Below are positions 1,788-39,088 of a stretch of 42,294 nucleotides of DNA, in pieces (position 1 is the stretch's first letter; the number at the start of each line of letters is the position of its first letter). The notes under the pieces were generated by a model. The model ran no database searches, was not told the origin of the DNA, and saw nothing but the letters and a program-made list of their open reading frames with translations. The DNA is from an uncultured Alcaligenaceae bacterium (lineage in GTDB: Bacteria > Pseudomonadota > Gammaproteobacteria > Burkholderiales > JACQAP01): contig CAZYTR010000207.1 in NCBI GenBank assembly GCA_964650365.1, forward strand, positions 1 to 42,294, written 5' to 3'. A program made the position numbers and the translations under genes.

Positions 1788-1966
1788 CAACGCAGAGGCG
1801 CAGAGAACGCAGAGGGCGCAGAGAAACCAAGAACTGTGAAAATGATCGATATTCGACAATGCGACACGATGGCGCGAAACGTGCAATCGAGGTCTTGGTT
1901 CCACCTGCCCACGAATTTCGTCCTGATTTCCTCTGCGCCCTCTGCGTTCTCTGCGTCTCGGCGTTG
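1788..1966. repeat. Composite hairpin element E1: purine-rich tandem-unit arm (GCAGAGR units), 100-nt centre, complementary pyrimidine-rich arm
   Basis: The left arm is 1788-1826 (CAACGCAGAGGCGCAGAGAACGCAGAGGGCGCAGAGAAA). The reverse complement of the right arm, 1927-1966, is CAACGCCGAGACGCAGAGAACGCAGAGGGCGCAGAGGAAA. The two arms share a perfect 25-nt run. Confidence 0.9.
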
Positions 1967-9182: not shown

Positions 9183-9240
9183 TCTTATTCCTTCCTTCGT
9201 GTTCCTTTCTTCTACCTTCGTGACCCTTCGTGTTGAAAGC
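9178..9240. repeat. Half copy (right-arm type) of the composite hairpin element, E5-like
   Basis: ATTCTTATTCCTTCCTTCGTGTTCC...CTTCGTGACCCTTCGTGTTGAAAG resembles the E5 right end GGAATTCTTACC..CCTTCCTTCGCGTTCC...CTTTGCGGTGAAGAAG. I saw no complementary purine-rich arm within 150 nt on either side. Confidence 0.6.
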
Positions 9241-9266: not shown

Positions 9267-12023
9267 TCAGTGCGCTTTCTCCCAATTAGGGCCGGCACCG
9301 ACATCCACAACCAGCGGCACATCGAGTCTTGCGACGTTTCCCATCAGCTTCGGCAGTTCCTTTTTTACCGATTCGAGTTCGCCCTCCGGCACTTCGAGCA
9401 CCAGTTCGTCGTGCACCTGCATGATCAGCCGGCTGCCGATCGCAGATGTCGCGATCCAGTCGTGCACGGCGATCATCGCCAGCTTGATTAGGTCGGCCGC
9501 GGTGCCCTGCATCGGCGCGTTGATCGCCGCGCGTTCGGCGCCCTGGCGGCGCGCGCCGTTCCCGCTTCTGATCTCGGGCAGGTAAAGCCGGCGGCCGAAC
9601 ACGGTCTCGACGTAACCGAGCTCGCGCGCCGTCTCGCGGGTGCGCTCCATGTATTCCTTCACGCCCGGGTAGCGCTGGAAGTAGCGCTCCATGTATTGCT
9701 GCGCGGCGCTGCGTTCGATGCCGAGCTGCGAGGCCAGCCCGAACGCGGACATGCCGTAGATCAGGCCGAAGTTGATTACCTTGGCGTAGCGGCGCTGCTC
9801 GCTGGTCACGGGCGCCGACTCGATACCGAATATTTCCGACGCGGTATGGCGATGCACGTCCTCGCCGGCGGCGAAGGCCTTGAGCAGGCTCTTGTCCTGC
9901 GACAGGTGAGCCATGATGCGCAGTTCGATCTGCGAATAATCTGCCGATACGAGTACGGATCCTTGCGGCGCGATGAAGGCTTCACGGATGCGGCGGCCCT
10001 CGGCGGTGCGCACCGGGATGTTCTGCAGGTTCGGATCGTTGCTCGCCAGCCGCCCGGTCACCGCCACCGCCTGCGCGTAATTGGTATGCACACGTCCCGT
10101 CGCCGGATTCACCATCTTCGGCAGCTTGTCGGTGTAGGTGGACTTCAGTTTGGCGAGTCCCCGGTACTCGAGGATCAGCTTCGGCAGCGGATGGTCGAGC
10201 GCGAGTTCCTGCAAGACGTCCTCGTCGGTGGAAGGCTGGCCTCCCGGCGTTTTCTTCTTGACCGGCAGGCCTTTGCGCTCGAACAGGATCTCCTGGAGCT
10301 GCTTGGGCGAATTGAGATTGAAGGGTTGCCCGGCCTCCCGGTGTACCTTGTTCTCCAGTTCGATCATCTTTTCGCCGAGTTCGCGGCTCTGCTGCTCCAG
10401 CAGCGCGGAGTCGAGCAGCACGCCCTGGCGCTCCATCGCAAACAGGACTTCCAGCACCGGCATTTCGATGCCGCGGTAGACGCGATCCAGTTTCTCGTCG
10501 CGCTCGATCTGTGGATACAGCGCCCGGTGCAGTTGCAACGTCACGTCCGCGTCTTCGCCCGAGTACTCGGTGGCGCGCTCCACGCCGACTTGTTCGAAGG
10601 GAATGCGGCTCGCGCCCTTGCCGGTCACTTCGTCGTAGCTGATGGTTGTGATGCCCAGGTGCCGGGCCGCGAGGCTATCCATGTCGTGCGCCTGGTGGCT
10701 TTCCAGTACGTAGGACTGCAACAGCGTGTCGTGCTCGATGCCAGACAGCAATACGCCGTGATTGGCGAACACGTGCTTGTCGTACTTCAGGTTCTGACCG
10801 ACCTTCCGATGCTTCGGACTCTGCATCCAATCCTTCAGCAGTGCGAGCACCGTATCCAGTGCAAGCTGCTCCGGCGCGCCGGCGTAGTTGTGCCCGACCG
10901 GTATATACGCGGCGTGATGGGGCTCGACCGAAAGCGAGATGCCGACCAGTCGTGCGGTCATGGGGTCGAGTCCGGTGGTTTCGGTGTCGATCGAGGCGAG
11001 TTCGGCGGTTTCGATGCGGGAGAGCCAAGTCTTGAGGTCGTGCTCCGTAAGTACGGTCTGGTAGTTGCGTTCAGGTGAGGCGTGAGGGGTGAGGGGTGGG
11101 GGGTGAGGGGTGAGGCGTGAGGGGTGAGGCGATGAAGCCGGAGACTCGGTTTCACCTTGCGCCTCGTGCCCCGTGCCTCGTGCCTGAAGCTCCTTCAACC
11201 AGGTCTTGAATTCGAGGCGATCGAAGAGAACCGTTAGTTTCGCCGTGTCCTGCGGCTGTGGGGTGAGATCCTCGAGCTTCACCGGCAGCTCGACGTCGCA
11301 CTTGATGGTGAGGAGTTTCCTTGCCTGTGGCAGCCAGTCCAGCGACTTGCGCAGGTTCTCGCCGACCACACCGGAGACTTCGTTGGCGTGGGCGACCACC
11401 TGGTCCAGCGTCCCGTACTGCTTCAACCATTTCACTGCCGTCTTTGGCCCGACCTTCTCCACGCCCGGCACGTTGTCCACGCTGTCGCCGACCAGTGTGA
11501 GATAGTCAACCATCTGTTCCGGCCTGACGCCGAACTTCTCTTCGACGCCCTTTTCGTCGAGGTTCTCGTTGGACATGGTGTTCACCAGCCTGACCGTCGG
11601 GTTGACCAGTTGAGTGATGTCCTTGTCGCCGGTGGATATGACGGTGTGCACGCCCCTGGCCTCGGCCTGCTTTGCCAGCGTGCCGATGACGTCGTCGGCT
11701 TCGACCCCCTCGACCATCAGCAGCGGCCAACCCAGCGCGCGCACACTCTGGTGCAGAGGTTCGATCTGGGCGACCAGCTCCTCCGGCATGGGCGGGCGGT
11801 TGGCCTTGTATTCGGTGTACCAGTCGTCGCGGAAGGTCTTTCCTTTTGCGTCGAATACGCAAGCGATATAATCCGCCGCAGTTTCCTTACGCAGCCGGCG
11901 CAGCATGTTGAGCACGCCGTACACGGCGCCGGTCGGTTCGTTGTTCCTGTTGCGCAGGTCGGGAAGCGCGTGGAATGCGCGGTAAAGGTAGGAAGAACCG
12001 TCGACCAGCAAGAGCGTTTTCAT
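9267..12023 (-). CDS. polA: DNA polymerase I (5'-3' nuclease, 3'-5' exonuclease and polymerase domains)
   Basis: The 918-aa product starts with LLLVDGSSYLYRAFHA (5' nuclease). It has DTETT (exo I), the polymerase motif A DYSQIELR, motif B RR.AK.INFG.IYG and motif C QVHDEL. Confidence 0.95.
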   Translation of the reverse strand: MKTLLLVDGSSYLYRAFHALPDLRNRNNEPTGAVYGVLNMLRRLRKETAADYIACVFDAKGKTFRDDWYTEYKANRPPMPEELVAQIEPLHQSVRALGWPLLMVEGVEADDVIGTLAKQAEARGVHTVISTGDKDITQLVNPTVRLVNTMSNENLDEKGVEEKFGVRPEQMVDYLTLVGDSVDNVPGVEKVGPKTAVKWLKQYGTLDQVVAHANEVSGVVGENLRKSLDWLPQARKLLTIKCDVELPVKLEDLTPQPQDTAKLTVLFDRLEFKTWLKELQARGTGHEAQGETESPASSPHPSRLTPHPPPLTPHASPERNYQTVLTEHDLKTWLSRIETAELASIDTETTGLDPMTARLVGISLSVEPHHAAYIPVGHNYAGAPEQLALDTVLALLKDWMQSPKHRKVGQNLKYDKHVFANHGVLLSGIEHDTLLQSYVLESHQAHDMDSLAARHLGITTISYDEVTGKGASRIPFEQVGVERATEYSGEDADVTLQLHRALYPQIERDEKLDRVYRGIEMPVLEVLFAMERQGVLLDSALLEQQSRELGEKMIELENKVHREAGQPFNLNSPKQLQEILFERKGLPVKKKTPGGQPSTDEDVLQELALDHPLPKLILEYRGLAKLKSTYTDKLPKMVNPATGRVHTNYAQAVAVTGRLASNDPNLQNIPVRTAEGRRIREAFIAPQGSVLVSADYSQIELRIMAHLSQDKSLLKAFAAGEDVHRHTASEIFGIESAPVTSEQRRYAKVINFGLIYGMSAFGLASQLGIERSAAQQYMERYFQRYPGVKEYMERTRETARELGYVETVFGRRLYLPEIRSGNGARRQGAERAAINAPMQGTAADLIKLAMIAVHDWIATSAIGSRLIMQVHDELVLEVPEGELESVKKELPKLMGNVARLDVPLVVDVGAGPNWEKAH
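11075..11188. repeat. Tandem-unit arrays of the hairpin-element type inside the polA coding sequence (interdomain linker)
   Basis: Eight contiguous heptamers GTGAGGS/GTGGGGG occupy 11075-11130. After 30 nt come GCCTCGT, GCCCCGT, GCCTCGT and GCCTGAA at 11161-11188. These are the same unit types as the arms of E3 and E4. Confidence 0.85.
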
Positions 12024-16817: not shown

Positions 16818-19424
<2,607 letters not shown>

Positions 19425-19426
19425 GG

Positions 19427-19587
19427 GGCAGGATCGAGGATCGGGGATTGAGGATTCAAACTAAAGTCCTCGTGAAAACGGAAAATCTGAATGAAGGCTA
19501 CCAATTTGAGCGATCTTGCCGGTGTTCATTCATTGCGCGATCCTTTATGGGGATTTCACTCAATCCTCTATCCTCAGTCCTCAATCC
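19427..19587. repeat. Composite hairpin element E2 (units GGATYGA / TCRATCC)
   Basis: The left arm, 19427-19457, reads GGCAGGA TCGAGGA TCGGGGA TTGAGGA TTC. The right arm, 19560-19587, reads TCAATCC TCTATCC TCAGTCC TCAATCC. The arms are imperfectly complementary and the centre is about 100 nt. Confidence 0.85.
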
Positions 19588-19598
19588 CAATCATCGCG

Positions 19599-20069
19599 AT
19601 GCTTGTCATCGCGATGACGCTTTCAGCTTGCGGCTTCCAGTTGCGCGGGCAGGCCGCCCTACCGTTCGAGACCATCCATGTCGAGGCGCCTGGGTTCTCT
19701 CCTTTTGCCAAGGATCTCGAACGTGCCATCCGCTCCGGCAGCAAGACCCGCATCGTCGCAAGCCGCGACCAGGCCGAGGCAGTGGTCCAGATCGTCGGTG
19801 AGTCGCAGGAAAAGCTCATCCTGTCGTTGTCCAGCGGCGGCAAGGTGCGCGAATTCGACTTGCGTTATCGGGTCGCCTACCGGCTGACCGATCGCACCGG
19901 CACCGATCTCGCGTCGCCCGGAGAGATCGTTCTGCGCCGCGACATGACTTACGACGATACCGAAGTGCTCGCCAAGGAATCGGAGGAGTTGCTCCTGTTT
20001 CGCGACATGAAGACAGACGCGATCCGGCAGATGCTGCGGCGCCTGTCGGTGGCGAAACCCGCGTCGTAA
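19599..20069 (+). CDS. lptE: LPS-assembly lipoprotein LptE
   Basis: The track ORF starts at 19491, inside the repeat element. The in-frame ATG at 19599 gives [11 protein letters not shown] with an LSAC lipobox, followed by GFQLRG, which is typical of LptE. Its position after leuS matches E. coli. Confidence 0.8.
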
Positions 20070-20080
20070 CGGCCGGCGGA

Positions 20081-20086
20081 TATAAT
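20081..20086 (+). promoter_or_regulatory. Candidate sigma70 -10 hexamer (TATAAT) for metXW
   Basis: GGATATAATCCGC lies 27 nt upstream of the metX ATG. It shares TATAATCCGC with the leuS upstream region. Confidence 0.4.
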
Positions 20087-20113
20087 CCGCACAACCCAGG
20101 CCCCAGAGTTCCC

Positions 20114-21256
20114 ATGCCACCCGAAGGTTCCGTCGGCGTCGTCAGCCCGAAACTTGCGCACTTCGATGATCCGATCGCGCTCAGGAGCGGCGCGCGCCTG
20201 GTGTCGTACGACCTCGCCTATGAAACCTACGGCACGCTCAACGCCGCGCGCGACAACGCGGTGCTGGTTTGCCACGCGCTGAACGCCTCGCACCATGTCG
20301 CCGGGGTCTACGCTGACGAACCGGAAAACGTCGGCTGGTGGGACAACCTGATCGGCCCGGGCAAGCCGGTGGATACAAAGCGCTTCTTCGTCGTCGGCGT
20401 CAATAACCTCGGTGGCTGCCACGGATCCACCGGCCCTTCCAGCATCAATCCCGAAACCGGCAGGCCGTGGGGTGCGGATTTTCCGGTGGTGACGGTGGAC
20501 GACTGGGTGGAAGCGCAAGCACGGCTGGCCACACGGCTGGGCATCGAACGCTTTGCCGCTGTCATGGGTGGGAGCCTCGGCGCGATGCAGGCGCTGCAGT
20601 GGGCCATCAGCCAGCCGGAGCGCGTGCGTCATTCCATCGTGATTGCTGCCGCGCCCAGGCTTTCGGCGCAGAACATTGCCTTCAACGAGGTGGCGCGCCA
20701 GGCGATCACCACCGATCCGGATTTCCACGGGGGTAATTACTACTCGTACGGGGTGATACCGAGGCGGGGGCTTCGCATCGCCCGCATGATCGGGCACATC
20801 ACCTATCTGTCCGATGACGTGATGGCGGAGAAATTCGGCCGCGAATTGCGCGAAGGCGCGTTCAAGTTCAATTTCGACGTCGAATTCCAGATCGAGTCTT
20901 ACCTGCGCTACCAGGCCGACCGATTCGCAGAACGCTTCGACGCCAACACTTATTTGCGTATCACCAAGGCGCTCGACTACTTCGACCCGGCTGCCGCCTG
21001 CGGCGGCGATCTGTCTGCAACGTTGAAACCCGCGAAGGCGGGATTCCTGTTGGTGTCGTTCACTTCGGACTGGCGTTTTTCGTCGGCGCGTTCACGCGAG
21101 ATCATCAAGGCGCTGGTGGACAATCGCCTGAACGTGAGCTATGCGGAGATAGACGCGCCGCACGGCCACGACGCGTTCCTGATGGACGATCCGCGCTACC
21201 ACAAACTCATACATACCTACTTCAGCAATATCGTCCTGCAGGGCGCGGGAACATGA
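20114..21256 (+). CDS. metX: Homoserine O-acyltransferase, MetX family (acetyl versus succinyl specificity not decidable here)
   Basis: The 380-aa alpha/beta hydrolase has the nucleophile elbow [21 protein letters not shown] and a C-terminal HGHDAFL. It is followed by metW with an ATGA overlap. Confidence 0.9.
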
Positions 21257-29832: not shown

Positions 29833-29978
29833 GGAGGTGAGGCGTTAGGCGTGAGGCGAAGAAAGCCTAGCCCTGCAAGAAATTCCAGTTCTGTTGGGGC
29901 CTGCTACCATCTTTTCTACTGGTAATGCTGATTTTGCCCCTGACGTCCGTCGCCTCACGCCTATCGCCTTACGCCTCC
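29833..29978. repeat. Composite hairpin element E3 (units GTGAGGC / GCCTCAC) filling the mreB-mreC spacer
   Basis: The left arm, 29833-29858, is GGAGGTGAGGCGTTAGGCGTGAGGCG. The reverse complement of the right arm, 29951-29978, is GGAGGCGTAAGGCGATAGGCGTGAGGCG. The centre is 92 nt. Confidence 0.9.
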
Positions 29979-33450: not shown

Positions 33451-34537
33451 CCGTCTGTACGCCTACCTGGTCAAGCACCTCGATCGCTATCTGCTGACGC
33501 TGGTGGCCATCTTGCTGGTGATGGGCTTGTTGATCCTGTACAGCGCCGCGGGGGCGAGCCTCGAGCGCGTGGCGGCGCAAATGGCCAACATCGGCGTTGC
33601 GCTGGTGTTGATGTGGATCGCTGCCAACGTGCCCTTGCATTATCTTTCCCGCATTGCCCTGCCGCTGTACGTCCTCGGTCTGGCGCTGTTGATCGCGGTG
33701 GCCGCGTTCGGCGAGATTGTCAACGGTGCGCGACGCTGGCTCGACCTGGGATTCACCCGCATACAGCCTTCTGAGTTGATGAAAATCGCGGTGCCGTTGA
33801 TGCTGGCCTGGTACTTCGATCGCTATGAGGCGGTGCTCAAGATGCGCGACTTCGCTGTCGGGGCGCTGCTGGTGCTGGTGCCGGTGCTGCTGATCGTGCA
33901 GCAGCCCGACCTCGGCACAGCGCTGCTGGTGACCGCGGCCGGGTTCTTCGTGCTGTTTCTCGGCGGGTTGTCGTGGAAAATCCTGGTGGGCCTGACGTTG
34001 GCAGGCGGGGCGAGCCTTCCGTTCCTGTGGCCGATGCTGCACGACTACCAGCGCCAGCGGGTGCTGACGCTGCTCGATCCCTCGCAGGACCCGCTGGGTT
34101 CGGGCTATCACACCATCCAGTCCACCATCGCGCTGGGTTCCGGCGGAGTCTTCGGCAAAGGCTGGCTCAACGGCACCCAGTCGCATCTCGACTTTCTGCC
34201 GGAGCGCACCACCGACTTCATTTTCGCGGTGTACGCGGAAGAGTTCGGCCTCTTCGGCAACCTGGTGCTGATGGTATTGTTCCTGCTGGTCGTCGGCCGC
34301 GGGCTGGTGATCGCAGCCAACGCCCCGACACTGTTCACCCGGCTGCTCGCCGGCGCGATCACGCTGACCTTCTTCACTTACGCCATCGTCAACATGGGGA
34401 TGGTGAGCGGAATCCTGCCGGTGGTCGGCGTTCCGCTGCCGCTGATCAGTTATGGCGGCACCTCGCTGGTGACGATACTATTCAGCGTCGGTTTGCTGAT
34501 GAGCATCCATACGCATCGAAGGCTTGTTCAAACCTAG
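33443..34537 (+). CDS. rodA: Peptidoglycan glycosyltransferase RodA (SEDS family)
   Basis: The 364-aa product has about 10 TM helices. It has QPSELMK, DLG.ALL, DFIF....EE.G..G and PLP..SYGG.S. The GTG start overlaps the mrdA stop by 8 nt. Confidence 0.9.
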   Translation: MINRLYAYLVKHLDRYLLTLVAILLVMGLLILYSAAGASLERVAAQMANIGVALVLMWIAANVPLHYLSRIALPLYVLGLALLIAVAAFGEIVNGARRWLDLGFTRIQPSELMKIAVPLMLAWYFDRYEAVLKMRDFAVGALLVLVPVLLIVQQPDLGTALLVTAAGFFVLFLGGLSWKILVGLTLAGGASLPFLWPMLHDYQRQRVLTLLDPSQDPLGSGYHTIQSTIALGSGGVFGKGWLNGTQSHLDFLPERTTDFIFAVYAEEFGLFGNLVLMVLFLLVVGRGLVIAANAPTLFTRLLAGAITLTFFTYAIVNMGMVSGILPVVGVPLPLISYGGTSLVTILFSVGLLMSIHTHRRLVQT

Positions 34538-34680
34538 GCACGAGGCACGAGGTATGAGGTGCGAGGTCCAAGAAGAAACAGGAGTGCGGCCTTTGACCTT
34601 TCACAAGTGTATGAATCGATCCAATGCCATCAAGACATAGAGTATTTACTCGTACCTCGGCCCTCGTACCTCGAGCCTCC
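34537..34680. repeat. Composite hairpin element E4 (units CACGAGG / CCTCGTA) filling the rodA-rlpA spacer
   Basis: The left arm, 34537-34569, is AGGCACGAGGCACGAGGTATGAGGTGCGAGGTCC. The reverse complement of the right arm, 34647-34680, is GGAGGCTCGAGGTACGAGGGCCGAGGTACGAGTA. About 23 of 31 positions are complementary by hand alignment. The centre is 77 nt. Confidence 0.85.
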
Positions 34681-34718
34681 GCAATAATCATGGCGGCGTT
34701 CGCCGCCATGATTATTGC
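34681..34718. repeat. Near-perfect 38-bp palindrome spanning the rlpA start codon
   Basis: GCAATAATCATGGCGGCG TT CGCCGCCATGATTATTGC has 18 complementary pairs around a central TT, checked base by base. It contains ATG 34690 and ATG 34708. Confidence 0.95.
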
Positions 34719-35517
34719 GGGTTGCGGCAGCGCTCCCGGCCGCACCGGGTCGAAGCCCGGCGGTTACTATCTCGACGACGGACCGGGCGCCAACCCTCCC
34801 GCGGATCTGGATTCGATTGCCGAACCAACTCCGAAAATCGAGCCGGTCAACAAGTACACCAGCCGCCCGTACACCGTGCTCGGCCGCACCTACACACCGC
34901 ACACGCAACTGACTCCGTACAAGGAGCGCGGCGTGGCAAGCTGGTATGGCAAGCGCTACCACGGCCAGAAGACTTCCTCGGGCGAGGTTTACGACATGTA
35001 TGCGCTCAGCGCGGCGCACACGCTGCTGGTGCTGCCGAGTTACGCCCGCGTAACCAATGTCGCCAACGGCAAGTCCGTAGTGGTGCGTGTGAATGACCGC
35101 GGTCCGTTCCATGAGGACCGGCTGATCGATCTTTCCTACGCCGCGGCGCATCGAATCGGCATCATCGGCCAGGGCAGCGCCGTGGTTGAGGTGGAAGCCA
35201 TCATTCCCGGCGGCGGCGAAGCGCCGGTGGTTGCGAGCGCGCCGGCCGCACCCGCGCCGGTAGCGATCCCGGTCAGCAACGAGGCCGGTGGCATCTTCGT
35301 GCAGCTCGGCGCCTTCTCGGTGGAGGACAACGCCGAGGCATTCCTGCGCAGGATGAGCATCGACCTGGCCTGGCTTTCCGGTTCCATGCAACTGTACCGT
35401 GGCGACGGACTTTTCAAGGTTCACGCGGGGCCTTACCCCGATCGTGCAGAGGCCGAACGCGCCGCCGAACGCATCCGGCAGGAACTCGGATTCACACCCT
35501 TTGTGCTGAAACGCTGA
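34690..35517 (+). CDS. rlpA: Septal ring lytic transglycosylase RlpA family lipoprotein with C-terminal SPOR domain
   Basis: The ATG at 34690 gives MAAFAAMIIAGC, with an IAGC lipobox. The DPBB domain shows G.ASWYG..YHG..T.SGE.YDM....AAH..L.LPSY.RV.N..NG.SV.VRVNDRGPF. The C-terminal SPOR domain shows FVQLGAF......A......L. The track start at 34624 lies inside element E4. Confidence 0.85.
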   Translation: MAAFAAMIIAGCGSAPGRTGSKPGGYYLDDGPGANPPADLDSIAEPTPKIEPVNKYTSRPYTVLGRTYTPHTQLTPYKERGVASWYGKRYHGQKTSSGEVYDMYALSAAHTLLVLPSYARVTNVANGKSVVVRVNDRGPFHEDRLIDLSYAAAHRIGIIGQGSAVVEVEAIIPGGGEAPVVASAPAAPAPVAIPVSNEAGGIFVQLGAFSVEDNAEAFLRRMSIDLAWLSGSMQLYRGDGLFKVHAGPYPDRAEAERAAERIRQELGFTPFVLKR

Positions 35518-38122: not shown

Positions 38123-38293
38123 CTTCACCGCAAAGACGCAAAGAGGAACACGCAAAGAAATGCGGAATTGAACAGAAATTCGATCCCGCGATTTGCAAAG
38201 GATACGGGAGCGCACCTGGAATTCTTACCCCAGTTTCCTGCCTTCCTTCGCGTTCCCTTTGCGCCTTCGCGCCTTCGCGCCTTTGCGGTGAAG
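38123..38293. repeat. Composite hairpin element E5 (8-nt units GCAAAGAC / GCGAAGGC) between the cytochrome c5 terminator and apaH
   Basis: The left arm, 38123-38158, is CTTCACCGCAAAGACGCAAAGAGGAACACGCAAAGA. The reverse complement of the right arm, 38241-38293, is CTTCACCGCAAAGGCGCGAAGGCGCGAAGGCGCAAAGGGAACGCGAAGGAAGG. The first 13 nt are identical. The right arm carries two extra units. Confidence 0.9.
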
Positions 38294-39011: not shown

Positions 39012-39088
39012 GCGCCCGTAGCTCAGCTGGATAGAGTGTCGGTCTCCGAAGCCGAAGGTCGTGGGTTCGACTCCCGCCGGGCGCGCCA
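39012..39088 (+). tRNA. tRNA-Arg (anticodon CCG)
   Basis: I hand-folded a 77-nt cloverleaf. The acceptor stem is GCGCCCG/CGGGCGC and the D stem is GCTC/GAGT. The anticodon stem TCGGT/GCCGA carries the loop CT-CCG-AA. The T stem GTGGG/CCCGC carries the loop TTCGACT. The discriminator is G and CCA is encoded. Confidence 0.9.

Follow-up and report, generated by a model that had tools for sequence, protein, structure and literature searches.

A contig of 42,294 nucleotides (nt) from an uncultured Alcaligenaceae bacterium, a soil betaproteobacterium (CAZYTR010000207.1, assembly GCA_964650365.1)—hereafter the window—carries, in the interval from the leuS stop codon to the main part of lptE, an element (E2, positions 19427–19592) in which two tandem arrays of a seven-nucleotide unit face each other as an inverted pair. 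Comparison of this site with its orthologues shows that the two arms change together: the unit differs from one locus to another, and independent drift of the arms is excluded. The sequences further indicate that the unit types are discrete cassette alleles, and that the site is multi-allelic from the leuS stop to the h-region of lptE. We tentatively favour an explanation at the level of DNA, to which we give somewhat less than an even chance: that these are inverted minisatellites, expanded by slippage, made or re-matched by template switching between the arms and tolerated at gene borders.

A first-pass annotation of this DNA, made from the letters alone, had reported that in E2 the left units GGATCGA, GGATCGG and GGATTGA face right units with complements GGATTGA, GGACTGA, GGATAGA and GGATTGA, and this reading is exact; the right-hand complements are the left unit with one or two changes. 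Tandem arrays were called with Tandem Repeats Finder (TRF), which assigned a period of 7 to both E2 arrays, and inverted arms with an inverted-repeat search, in which 19430–19452 and 19559–19581 were 83% complementary at a distance of 106 nt. The element follows the leuS open reading frame (ORF; 16830–19424) and precedes the part of lptE that matches the Pfam family LptE. Relatives were represented by 100 loci (cited below by L number) totalling 880 kb. A search of species-representative genomes with LptE gave 20 of these, each in a metagenome-assembled genome of an uncultured betaproteobacterium (Burkholderiales-type), and a metagenome scan gave the other 80.

In relatives with an LptE about 50% identical to that of the window, usually 41–80 nt, holding the signal peptide only, separate the leuS stop from the lipobox Cys codon; in the closer clade the interval is mostly 140–290 nt, with the element inside. 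At least seven unit types occupy the site (GGACTGA, GGATYGA, GGGACGA, AAGGATG, GTGCTGM, GGACTCR, GTGAATC and GTGAGGC-like). The mean match of a left arm to its own right arm was 14.3, against 7.8 for the right arms of other loci, and none of 100,000 permutations reached the diagonal sum (p < 1e-5); the joint change of the arms is robust. The claim that architecture is kept while unit sequence is not thus holds between the loci of the window and also at this one orthologous site. Only spacers of the same unit type could be aligned with one another (mean local score 21.4); those of different types scored 7.0, compared with 6.7 for shuffled sequences. Inversion of the spacer between alleles was considered and rejected, as reverse-orientation scores equalled shuffled scores.

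The flanks tell a different story from the cassettes. Four loci with other cassettes (L001, L004, L026 and L003) have flanks 85–98% identical to the window, in 60-nt windows, right up to the boundaries, and four-fold-site identities of 0.78–0.89, while their cassettes are 0.44–0.48 identical to that of the window (shuffled 0.51). Taking all other types together, cassette identity to the window was 0.44–0.59 (shuffled 0.51) and flank identity 0.77–0.94 overall, the fall from about 90% to random coming exactly at the cassette boundaries. L024 and L025, which share the cassette type of the window, have cassette identities of 0.80–0.87, equal to the flank level; same-type cassettes thus evolve at the ordinary rate of the flanks, and types differ by replacement or by very old divergence. 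Loci with lptE third codon positions 0.96 identical can yet hold different cassettes (for example, L024 and L005), and the same cassette types recur on different flank backgrounds. This boundary pattern may reflect recombination halting at heterology or, in part, assembly chimerism, metagenome assemblies possibly being chimeric across conserved flanks; chimeric assembly could exaggerate the incongruence and could not create cassette types. The co-variation of arms reported in the first-pass annotation is real, much of it being whole-cassette turnover and not stepwise compensation, and the contrary idea that each unit type belongs to a separate family is partly borne out by non-homologous spacers on near-identical flanks.

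Within one cassette lineage, compensation is scarce. Seven GGACTGA-type loci with homologous spacers provided 29 stem columns, of which just two held two Watson–Crick pair types, beside many broken, uncompensated pairs; the independent accumulation of mismatches that had been named as contrary evidence was thus found in part. Symmetric change of unit number, suggested as a check on co-variation, was not what we observed: numbers are asymmetric between arms (e.g. about 9/4, 5/8 and 4/1.5), and the right arm has about 1.5, 5 and 8 units in L027, L005 and L023, with the same spacer, which is consistent with slippage.

Unit number apart, the arms are whole mirror copies that include their non-repeat ends and the order of variant units. 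Compared with the reverse complement of its partner, an arm was 0.855 identical in register, a value somewhat inflated by the choice of best register, and 0.774 identical after a one-unit shift; neighbouring units within one arm were 0.80 identical, no higher than arm to arm. Another inverted pair in the window, E1, has units of 10, 8, 9 and 9 nt mirrored in order (identity 0.94 in register, 0.56 shifted), and in L012 an odd unit, CGTACTG, occupies the mirrored place in both arms. Independent expansion of one unit on both sides could not produce such mirroring of unit order and ends; copying between arms, or selection for pairing in a fixed register, could.

Mismatches between arms speak, weakly, to the choice between these two. 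A first set contained 41 transversions, 22 G·U and 14 A·C mismatches, so that about half were transversions and the ratio of 22:14 was not significant. A larger set, tallied on the + strand, gave 45 G·T against 14 A·C whatever the direction of the genes, and duplex energies favoured the + strand by about 1.6 kcal/mol in + and − operons alike. This wobble bias tracks the DNA strand and not the transcript, which is weak evidence against selection on sense RNA; it may stem from replication-strand mutation bias or from hairpins on one DNA strand. Cumulative GC skew of the + strand is weakly positive for most of the window.

Under the favoured reading, which is also the most economical, each element would consist of two tandem arrays of a 7-nt unit (sometimes 8–10 nt), one at either edge of a gene border and each the reverse complement of the other. 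The arrays would gain and lose units by slippage, and one arm would be made or re-copied from the other during DNA replication, by template switching between the inverted repeats (inverted duplication or quasi-palindrome correction). Template switching creates perfect stems and homogenises the arms of inverted repeats in bacteria (PMC8794818, PMC5941160, PMC7202029). Selection would act mainly as a filter on location, not through pair-by-pair repair of an RNA stem, and arrays would be tolerated immediately past stop codons, close ahead of the following gene or within its first codons, and in stretches that encode disordered linkers; inside ORFs they do occur at tolerant parts of the protein, namely the PolA linker and, probably, the n-regions of LptE and RlpA. 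Homologous recombination ending where heterology begins would then move different cassette alleles between similar flanks.

Several results count against this reading. No template-switch event with defined switch points in an ancestral and derived pair was found among the compared loci, and template switching should sometimes invert the spacer, of which no trace was found as reverse-orientation homology between alleles. Copying leaves unexplained the whole-spacer differences between cassette types and the origin of new spacers, as well as the constant 5′ position of the purine/G-rich arm and the Shine–Dalgarno-like GAGG/AGGA core found in 57 of 80 arms. The element is present in most relatives with an LptE at least about 65% identical, which fits structural selection, and the double compensatory changes in an adjacent LptE hairpin (below) are compatible with it too. 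The predicted RNA fold of E2 is strong on the sense strand (−63.9 kcal/mol, z −4.1; antisense −53.5, z −2.3), while as single-stranded DNA it folds no better than shuffled sequences (−23.8 kcal/mol, z −1.2). The incongruence of flanks and cassettes could partly be chimeric metagenome assembly. The mismatch asymmetry of minus-strand operons, in which sense RNA would carry about 2 G·U against 11 A·C, speaks for the DNA-level reading but is suggestive only, as the sample is small and, including orthologues, non-independent.

Some of these points favour a functional RNA hairpin, formed in the operon transcript when the purine arm past the stop codon base-pairs with its pyrimidine partner at the beginning of the following gene, about 100 nt being looped out, with selection acting on pairing while sequence drifts; it might serve as an RNase III site, a 3′-end protector, an attenuator or a termination–initiation coupler. 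We regard this as possible, though on the unlikely side. The RNA fold is the best single argument for such a role at E2, and in orthologues the sense strand is predicted to fold at −42 to −97 kcal/mol and is more stable than antisense in 11 of 15; the arms sit in the conserved operons leuS–lptE, mreB–mreC and rodA–rlpA, the element occurs in most of the clade with constant polarity and SD-like units, and the neighbouring lptE hairpin covaries. Against it, G·U is not enriched relative to transcription and minus-strand operons show the opposite; transversion mismatches are common, compensatory changes few within a cassette lineage, unit numbers unequal and single arms in existence, and in every unit of polA the sense strand has two A·C mismatches. 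RNase III cutting of the stem would also sever the ORFs of lptE and rlpA if these begin within the spacer. An Rfam 15 scan of the whole window at gathering scores matched only a tRNA and none of the arrays, and a promoter and terminator scan of 19000–20200 found nothing, neither a terminator-like site nor a T-run of the terminator kind. E2 is not an intrinsic terminator: its loop runs to about 100 nt, and the T-rich tracts next to the right arm are on the side that faces the loop. Between the selection on structure and the arm copying that the first-pass annotation had offered, the evidence leans to copying in DNA and away from continuous selection on an RNA stem, and does not settle the matter.

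The sharp border between conserved flanks and unalignable cassettes, the mismatch between cassette type and flank similarity (L024 and L005), the confinement of spacer homology to one unit type and the recurrence of types on different backgrounds would all suit ready-made cassettes—palindromic modules with arms like terminal inverted repeats, inserted or exchanged by a mobile element or by allelic recombination and matched from birth. This seems unlikely to us: there are no multi-copy families, no two pairs of the window share a spacer, and BLAST of cassettes against the 880 kb of related DNA gave arm-only matches elsewhere and no spacer copies at non-orthologous sites. Cassettes as dispersed repeat families were accordingly rejected for the sampled 880 kb, where elsewhere only arm-level matches and an unrelated REP-like hairpin turned up. 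Neither a transposase nearby nor, by eye, target-site duplications were seen, the incongruence may owe something to chimeric assemblies, and part of the spacer resembles the ancestral lptE N-terminus (SLRDP and ATGAACAG in element-free relatives), which suggests that the two arms arose around sequence already resident there. A further rival is independent slippage: a small inverted repeat with an expansion-prone heptamer would have been present at each site, and both copies would have expanded separately, slippage propensity being a property of the duplex, with neither cross-talk nor structural selection. This would fit the uncorrelated and fast-changing unit numbers, the dominance of period 7 among tandem arrays and a possible seed in L027 and L057, with right arms of 1–1.5 units. 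It leaves unexplained why variant or unequal units recur in mirrored order (E1, L012 and L058), a pattern to which this small sample already points, why non-repeat ends are mirrored and why arm-to-arm identity is at least as high as that of neighbouring units, and is very unlikely. G-quadruplex (G4) or i-motif regulatory repeats, as proposed for Xanthomonas and Nostoc heptamers, are extremely improbable here: the closest known repeats form G4 in vitro (PMC4692102) and a few arms could do so (the polA left arm and GGGACGA-type arms), but only six of 80 arms have four runs of at least three G, none of them in E2, E1 or the mreB–mreC, rodA–rlpA and 38123 pairs, and G4 was rejected as a general explanation.

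A bolder reading, which we consider decidedly unlikely, has these bacteria producing matched inverted tandem arrays de novo where genes adjoin, by fold-back or hairpin-templated synthesis with fixed G-rich-inward polarity; the process would generate hypervariable, multi-allelic cassettes at fixed chromosomal sites, rewriting the N-termini of the essential lipoproteins LptE and RlpA and the PolA linker, and would also underlie the convergent pairs of Xanthomonas and the bacterial preference for period 7.

E2 bears on where lptE begins. At every orthologous locus the lptE frame is open through the right arm into a spacer that bears a start codon. The spacer ATG of E2 at 19491 is in frame with lptE and encodes ...HSLRDPLWGF..., in which SLRDP matches the N-terminus MNSVCKRYSLRDPGLS... 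of the element-free L015 (YSLRDPGLS), and a start, ATGAACAG, is common to GGGACGA-type cassettes and L015. This lptE-like sequence in the spacer suggests that the two arms flank resident lptE sequence and not one arriving insert, and that the right arm, which lacks stop codons in all frames, is probably translated within the n-region of the LptE signal peptide; the region of ATG 19491 is probably the true start region of lptE.

The hairpin that encodes the LptE h-region behaves as a covarying stem, unlike the long arms. Among 28 orthologues (L001–L061), seven of its nine stem pairs show double compensatory changes, such as GTCATCGCGAC/GTCGCGATGAC, GTCATTGCG/CGCAATGAC and CCATCGTC/GACGATGG, and single changes on the sense strand comprise 14 wobbles against 5 A·C. 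On the other side of E2, a short period-7 array (CGCGCAC ×2.7, 19294–19312) within leuS coding sequence is kept in L001, L003, L005, L017, L021, L022 and L024; it is probably mere coding sequence called by TRF.

The window holds eight array-bearing sites: six are inverted pairs (E2 included) and two are single arrays, and no fewer than six different units occur in these 42 kb (Table 1). The other unit types listed in the first-pass annotation were all recovered as inverted pairs. Complementarity reaches 92% in E1 (AACGCAGAG-type units), 91% between the GTGAGGC arms 29837–29859 and 29950–29972 of mreB–mreC, and 90% in the 38123/38293 pair (GCAAAGA/GCGAAGG), in which the outer non-repeat ends, CTTCAC and GTGAAG, are mirrored too. 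When the reverse-complement match of an array to its flanks was scored against a null from random positions (99th percentile 10), four window pairs scored 13–30 and pair 38129/38256 only 10; the polA pair had no ungapped match.

Table 1. Arrays and associated hairpins in the window.
Feature	Position	Strand or context	Description
E2 left arm	19427–19456	+	about 4 heptamers, GGATCGA GGATCGG GGATTGA GGATT; letters GGCAGGATCGAGGATCGGGGATTGAGGATT; 2 nt past leuS stop (19422–19424)
E2 spacer	19457–19558	+	102 nt; not self-complementary
E2 right arm	19559–19592	+	4–5 tandem heptamers, CTCAATC CTCTATC CTCAGTC CTCAATC CC; letters CTCAATCCTCTATCCTCAGTCCTCAATCCCAATC
LptE h-region hairpin	19590–19618	+	CATCGCGATG-CTTGT-CATCGCGATG; encodes signal-peptide h-region
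E1 left arm	1788–1826	+	units of 8–10 nt, CAACGCAGAG GCGCAGAG AACGCAGAG GGCGCAGAG; 25 nt past aldehyde dehydrogenase stop
E1 right arm	1928–1966	+	mirror copy of left arm; upstream of ABC transporter gene
Single array	9192–9234	−	period 10, purine-rich on minus (sense) strand; between polA stop and start of SnoaL-like gene
polA pair	11074–11129 / 11161–11185 (11074–11185)	in minus-strand polA ORF	+ strand GTGAGGG/C ×8 ... CCTCGTG ×3
Single array	26806–26856	genes on minus strand	GTGAGGC ×7; nearly fills 73-nt gatA–gatB spacer
mreB–mreC pair	29837–29976	+	GTGAGGC GTTAGGC GTGAGGC ... 90 nt ... GCCTCAC GCCTATC GCCTTAC GCC; starts 7 nt past mreB stop
rodA–rlpA pair	34536–34567 / 34649–34679	+	CACGAGG-type (GGCACGA-type) units ... 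81 nt ... CTCGTAC-type units
RlpA palindrome	34679–34720	+	perfect 20 nt, CCGCAATAATCATGGCGGCG TT CGCCGCCATGATTATTGCGG; directly past right arm
38123 pair	38123–38143 / 38273–38293		8-nt units, CGCAAAGA ... CCTTCGCG / CCTTTGCG

Position relative to genes is a shared feature of these sites. Left arms start 0–25 nt past the upstream stop codon, that of rodA–rlpA overlapping the rodA stop, and right arms abut or enter the next ORF. Pyrimidine arms have no stop codon in any frame, and length changes of 7 nt are therefore survivable beside or in an ORF. The right arm of rodA–rlpA probably lies inside the rlpA ORF, if the start is ATG 34624, in the same arrangement as lptE. The RlpA palindrome, with its 2-nt centre, encodes the signal-peptide h-region AIIMAAFAAMIIAG, an arrangement that parallels lptE. 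The gatA–gatB array is pyrimidine-rich on the sense strand and lies just upstream of the gatB start; for the array at 9192–9234 an inverted partner was searched for in the flanks and none found. Next to the 38123–38293 pair begins a phosphoesterase gene on the minus strand, with an uncertain gene on the opposite side; about 720 nt downstream of the pair there is a tRNA gene (39012–39085; Rfam RF00005, 65 bits).

The polA pair is in frame and encodes part of the linker between the 5′-nuclease and 3′–5′ exonuclease domains (about amino acids 279–316), its heptamers being translated as ...SSPHPSRLTPHPPPLTPHASP... Both arms lie in frame in this inter-domain linker in four genomes, and the linker arrays of relatives (L001 932–1005, L005 301–411 and L006 202–320) vary in length and sequence. 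In the sense orientation of polA, the purine arm has CGAGG in place of TGAGG, with CGA for TGA, which avoids stop codons and so accounts for the asymmetry of the pair. The L006 linker has a second, different pair, CGAGGTC/CTCGGCC.

Period 7 was also the commonest tandem period in relatives, with 67 of 187 arrays in a first set and 160 of 610 TRF rows in the 880 kb, and unit types across related loci number in the dozens. After removal of near-identical loci, 47 inverted array pairs were left in relatives, a few of which (in ORFs and not purine-rich) are probably unrelated coding repeats. The first-pass annotation had the purine-rich arm always on the 5′ side. All window pairs agree, with a left-arm purine fraction of 0.70–0.78, and the left arm is G/purine-rich in nearly all pairs of relatives; GTGCTGM units in relatives, however, are only about 0.5 purine, yet have more G than C, making this a strong tendency and not a law. 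Its remark that the purine-first rule holds on both strands by symmetry, and so is uninformative on orientation, is correct. At the inner edges (1823–1830/1922–1930, 19457–19470/19548–19558, 29859–29868 and 34568–34580/34640–34648, for example), an A-rich GA(G/A)AAA-like stretch usually comes after the left arm, and TTTYAC or ATTTC before the right arm. Purines are more frequent in the left half of the spacer than in the right, and the halves are not complementary; the idea that a whole cassette is a decayed long palindrome was rejected on this ground (mean z 0.08).

The closest known case is that of the convergent GGGAATC pairs of Xanthomonas, and the present elements can be described as locus-specific inverted heptamer minisatellites with cassette polymorphism. 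Xanthomonas genomes each carry 70–75 convergent (inverted) pairs of GGGAATC heptamers, and Nostoc carries GGGGA(C/T)T repeats (Rehm et al. 2015, PMC4692102). The Xanthomonas repeats lie next to ORF ends and are without known function; related species keep them in the same place and of the same type (single or pair), although repeat length and sequence vary. Both genera have one genome-wide consensus, for which a G-quadruplex with a preference for four units was proposed; that work searched one motif, and co-variation of arms was outside its scope (PMC4692102). Likenesses include scattered, mainly intergenic tandem heptamers, convergent pairs with stem-loop potential, and a G-rich strand close to the 5′-neighbouring ORF with convergent polarity (all window pairs). 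Here, by contrast, the unit is site-specific, most arms are incapable of G4 and discrete cassette alleles occur at one site.

Among enterobacteria and pseudomonads, REP, BIME and REPIN elements are abundant intergenic inverted pairs that form hairpins, in operons or after stop codons, with arms tens of bases apart; in each genome the REP arms all fall into a single conserved sequence family that a RAYT transposase recognises, and they are not built of tandem repeats. The present arms differ in sharing no sequence, units varying by site, and no transposase-like ORF was found among the ORFs scanned in the 42 kb window. Unlike miniature inverted-repeat transposable elements, they enclose no multi-copy internal sequence, spacers being unique to each site by BLAST across the 880 kb, and by eye no target-site duplication was evident at the leuS–lptE boundaries, where a closely related empty site was lacking for comparison. 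The foldback transposons of Drosophila have long inverted arms of short tandem repeats around a variable middle, and are kb-sized, mobile and multi-copy; the present elements are bacterial and show no sign of mobility.

Cyanobacterial STRR sequences form another class of bacterial heptamer array. Others are the TAACTGA repeats of Beggiatoaceae (PMC4679880) and the heptanucleotide elements of Geobacter metallireducens (PMC2700814). All resemble the present arrays in having period 7 and lying mostly between genes and near start codons, the Geobacter elements also within genes, but they are direct repeats of one genome-wide unit in which inverted pairs are rare, a Beggiatoa genome having one ‘indirect’ set among 170 (PMC4679880). 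Template-switch mutation is a known DNA-level route by which one arm can become the reverse complement of the other in a single step and arms can be homogenised anew, and it predicts multi-base ‘compensatory’ changes without selection (PMC8794818, PMC5941160, PMC7202029). It is described for single short stems, and a coupling to array expansion, genome-wide abundance and a fixed purine-first polarity lie outside what is known of it. A paper on intrastrand triplexes (PMC4666352) was judged irrelevant.

The excess of heptamers in bacteria and the convergent pairs of Xanthomonas have long been known and remain unexplained, earlier searches having taken one motif at a time. In this clade the unit sequence is free, and the invariants are the period, the inverted pairing, the inward-facing G-rich strands and the position at gene ends; sequence-specific protein binding and G-quadruplexes are therefore ruled out as general explanations. 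The orthologous series amounts to a natural experiment, with many cassette alleles on near-identical flanks, that can separate arm copying in DNA from selection on RNA; it is unusually clean for an old, unexplained class of repeat, and is not yet a new principle. Arrays inside the essential genes polA, lptE and rlpA also matter for the annotation of gene starts and for the evolution of disordered linkers and signal peptides.

Some leuS–lptE cassettes have, in addition, been interrupted by two unrelated, small REP-like hairpin repeats that recur at other intergenic sites. One is CACCCCTYCGGGTGCATGTGAGGCGG and the other resembles CTTATGGCCGAARGCCGGTATYCCGC or GGACGCCCGACTTCGCTGGATGCCGGCC... They were seen in the leuS–lptE spacers of L009, L010, L014, L041 and L057 and at L006 9806–9831 and 9868–9893, and also at L041 20121–20405, L011 17217–17266, L030 9196–9248 and L013 9602–9636.

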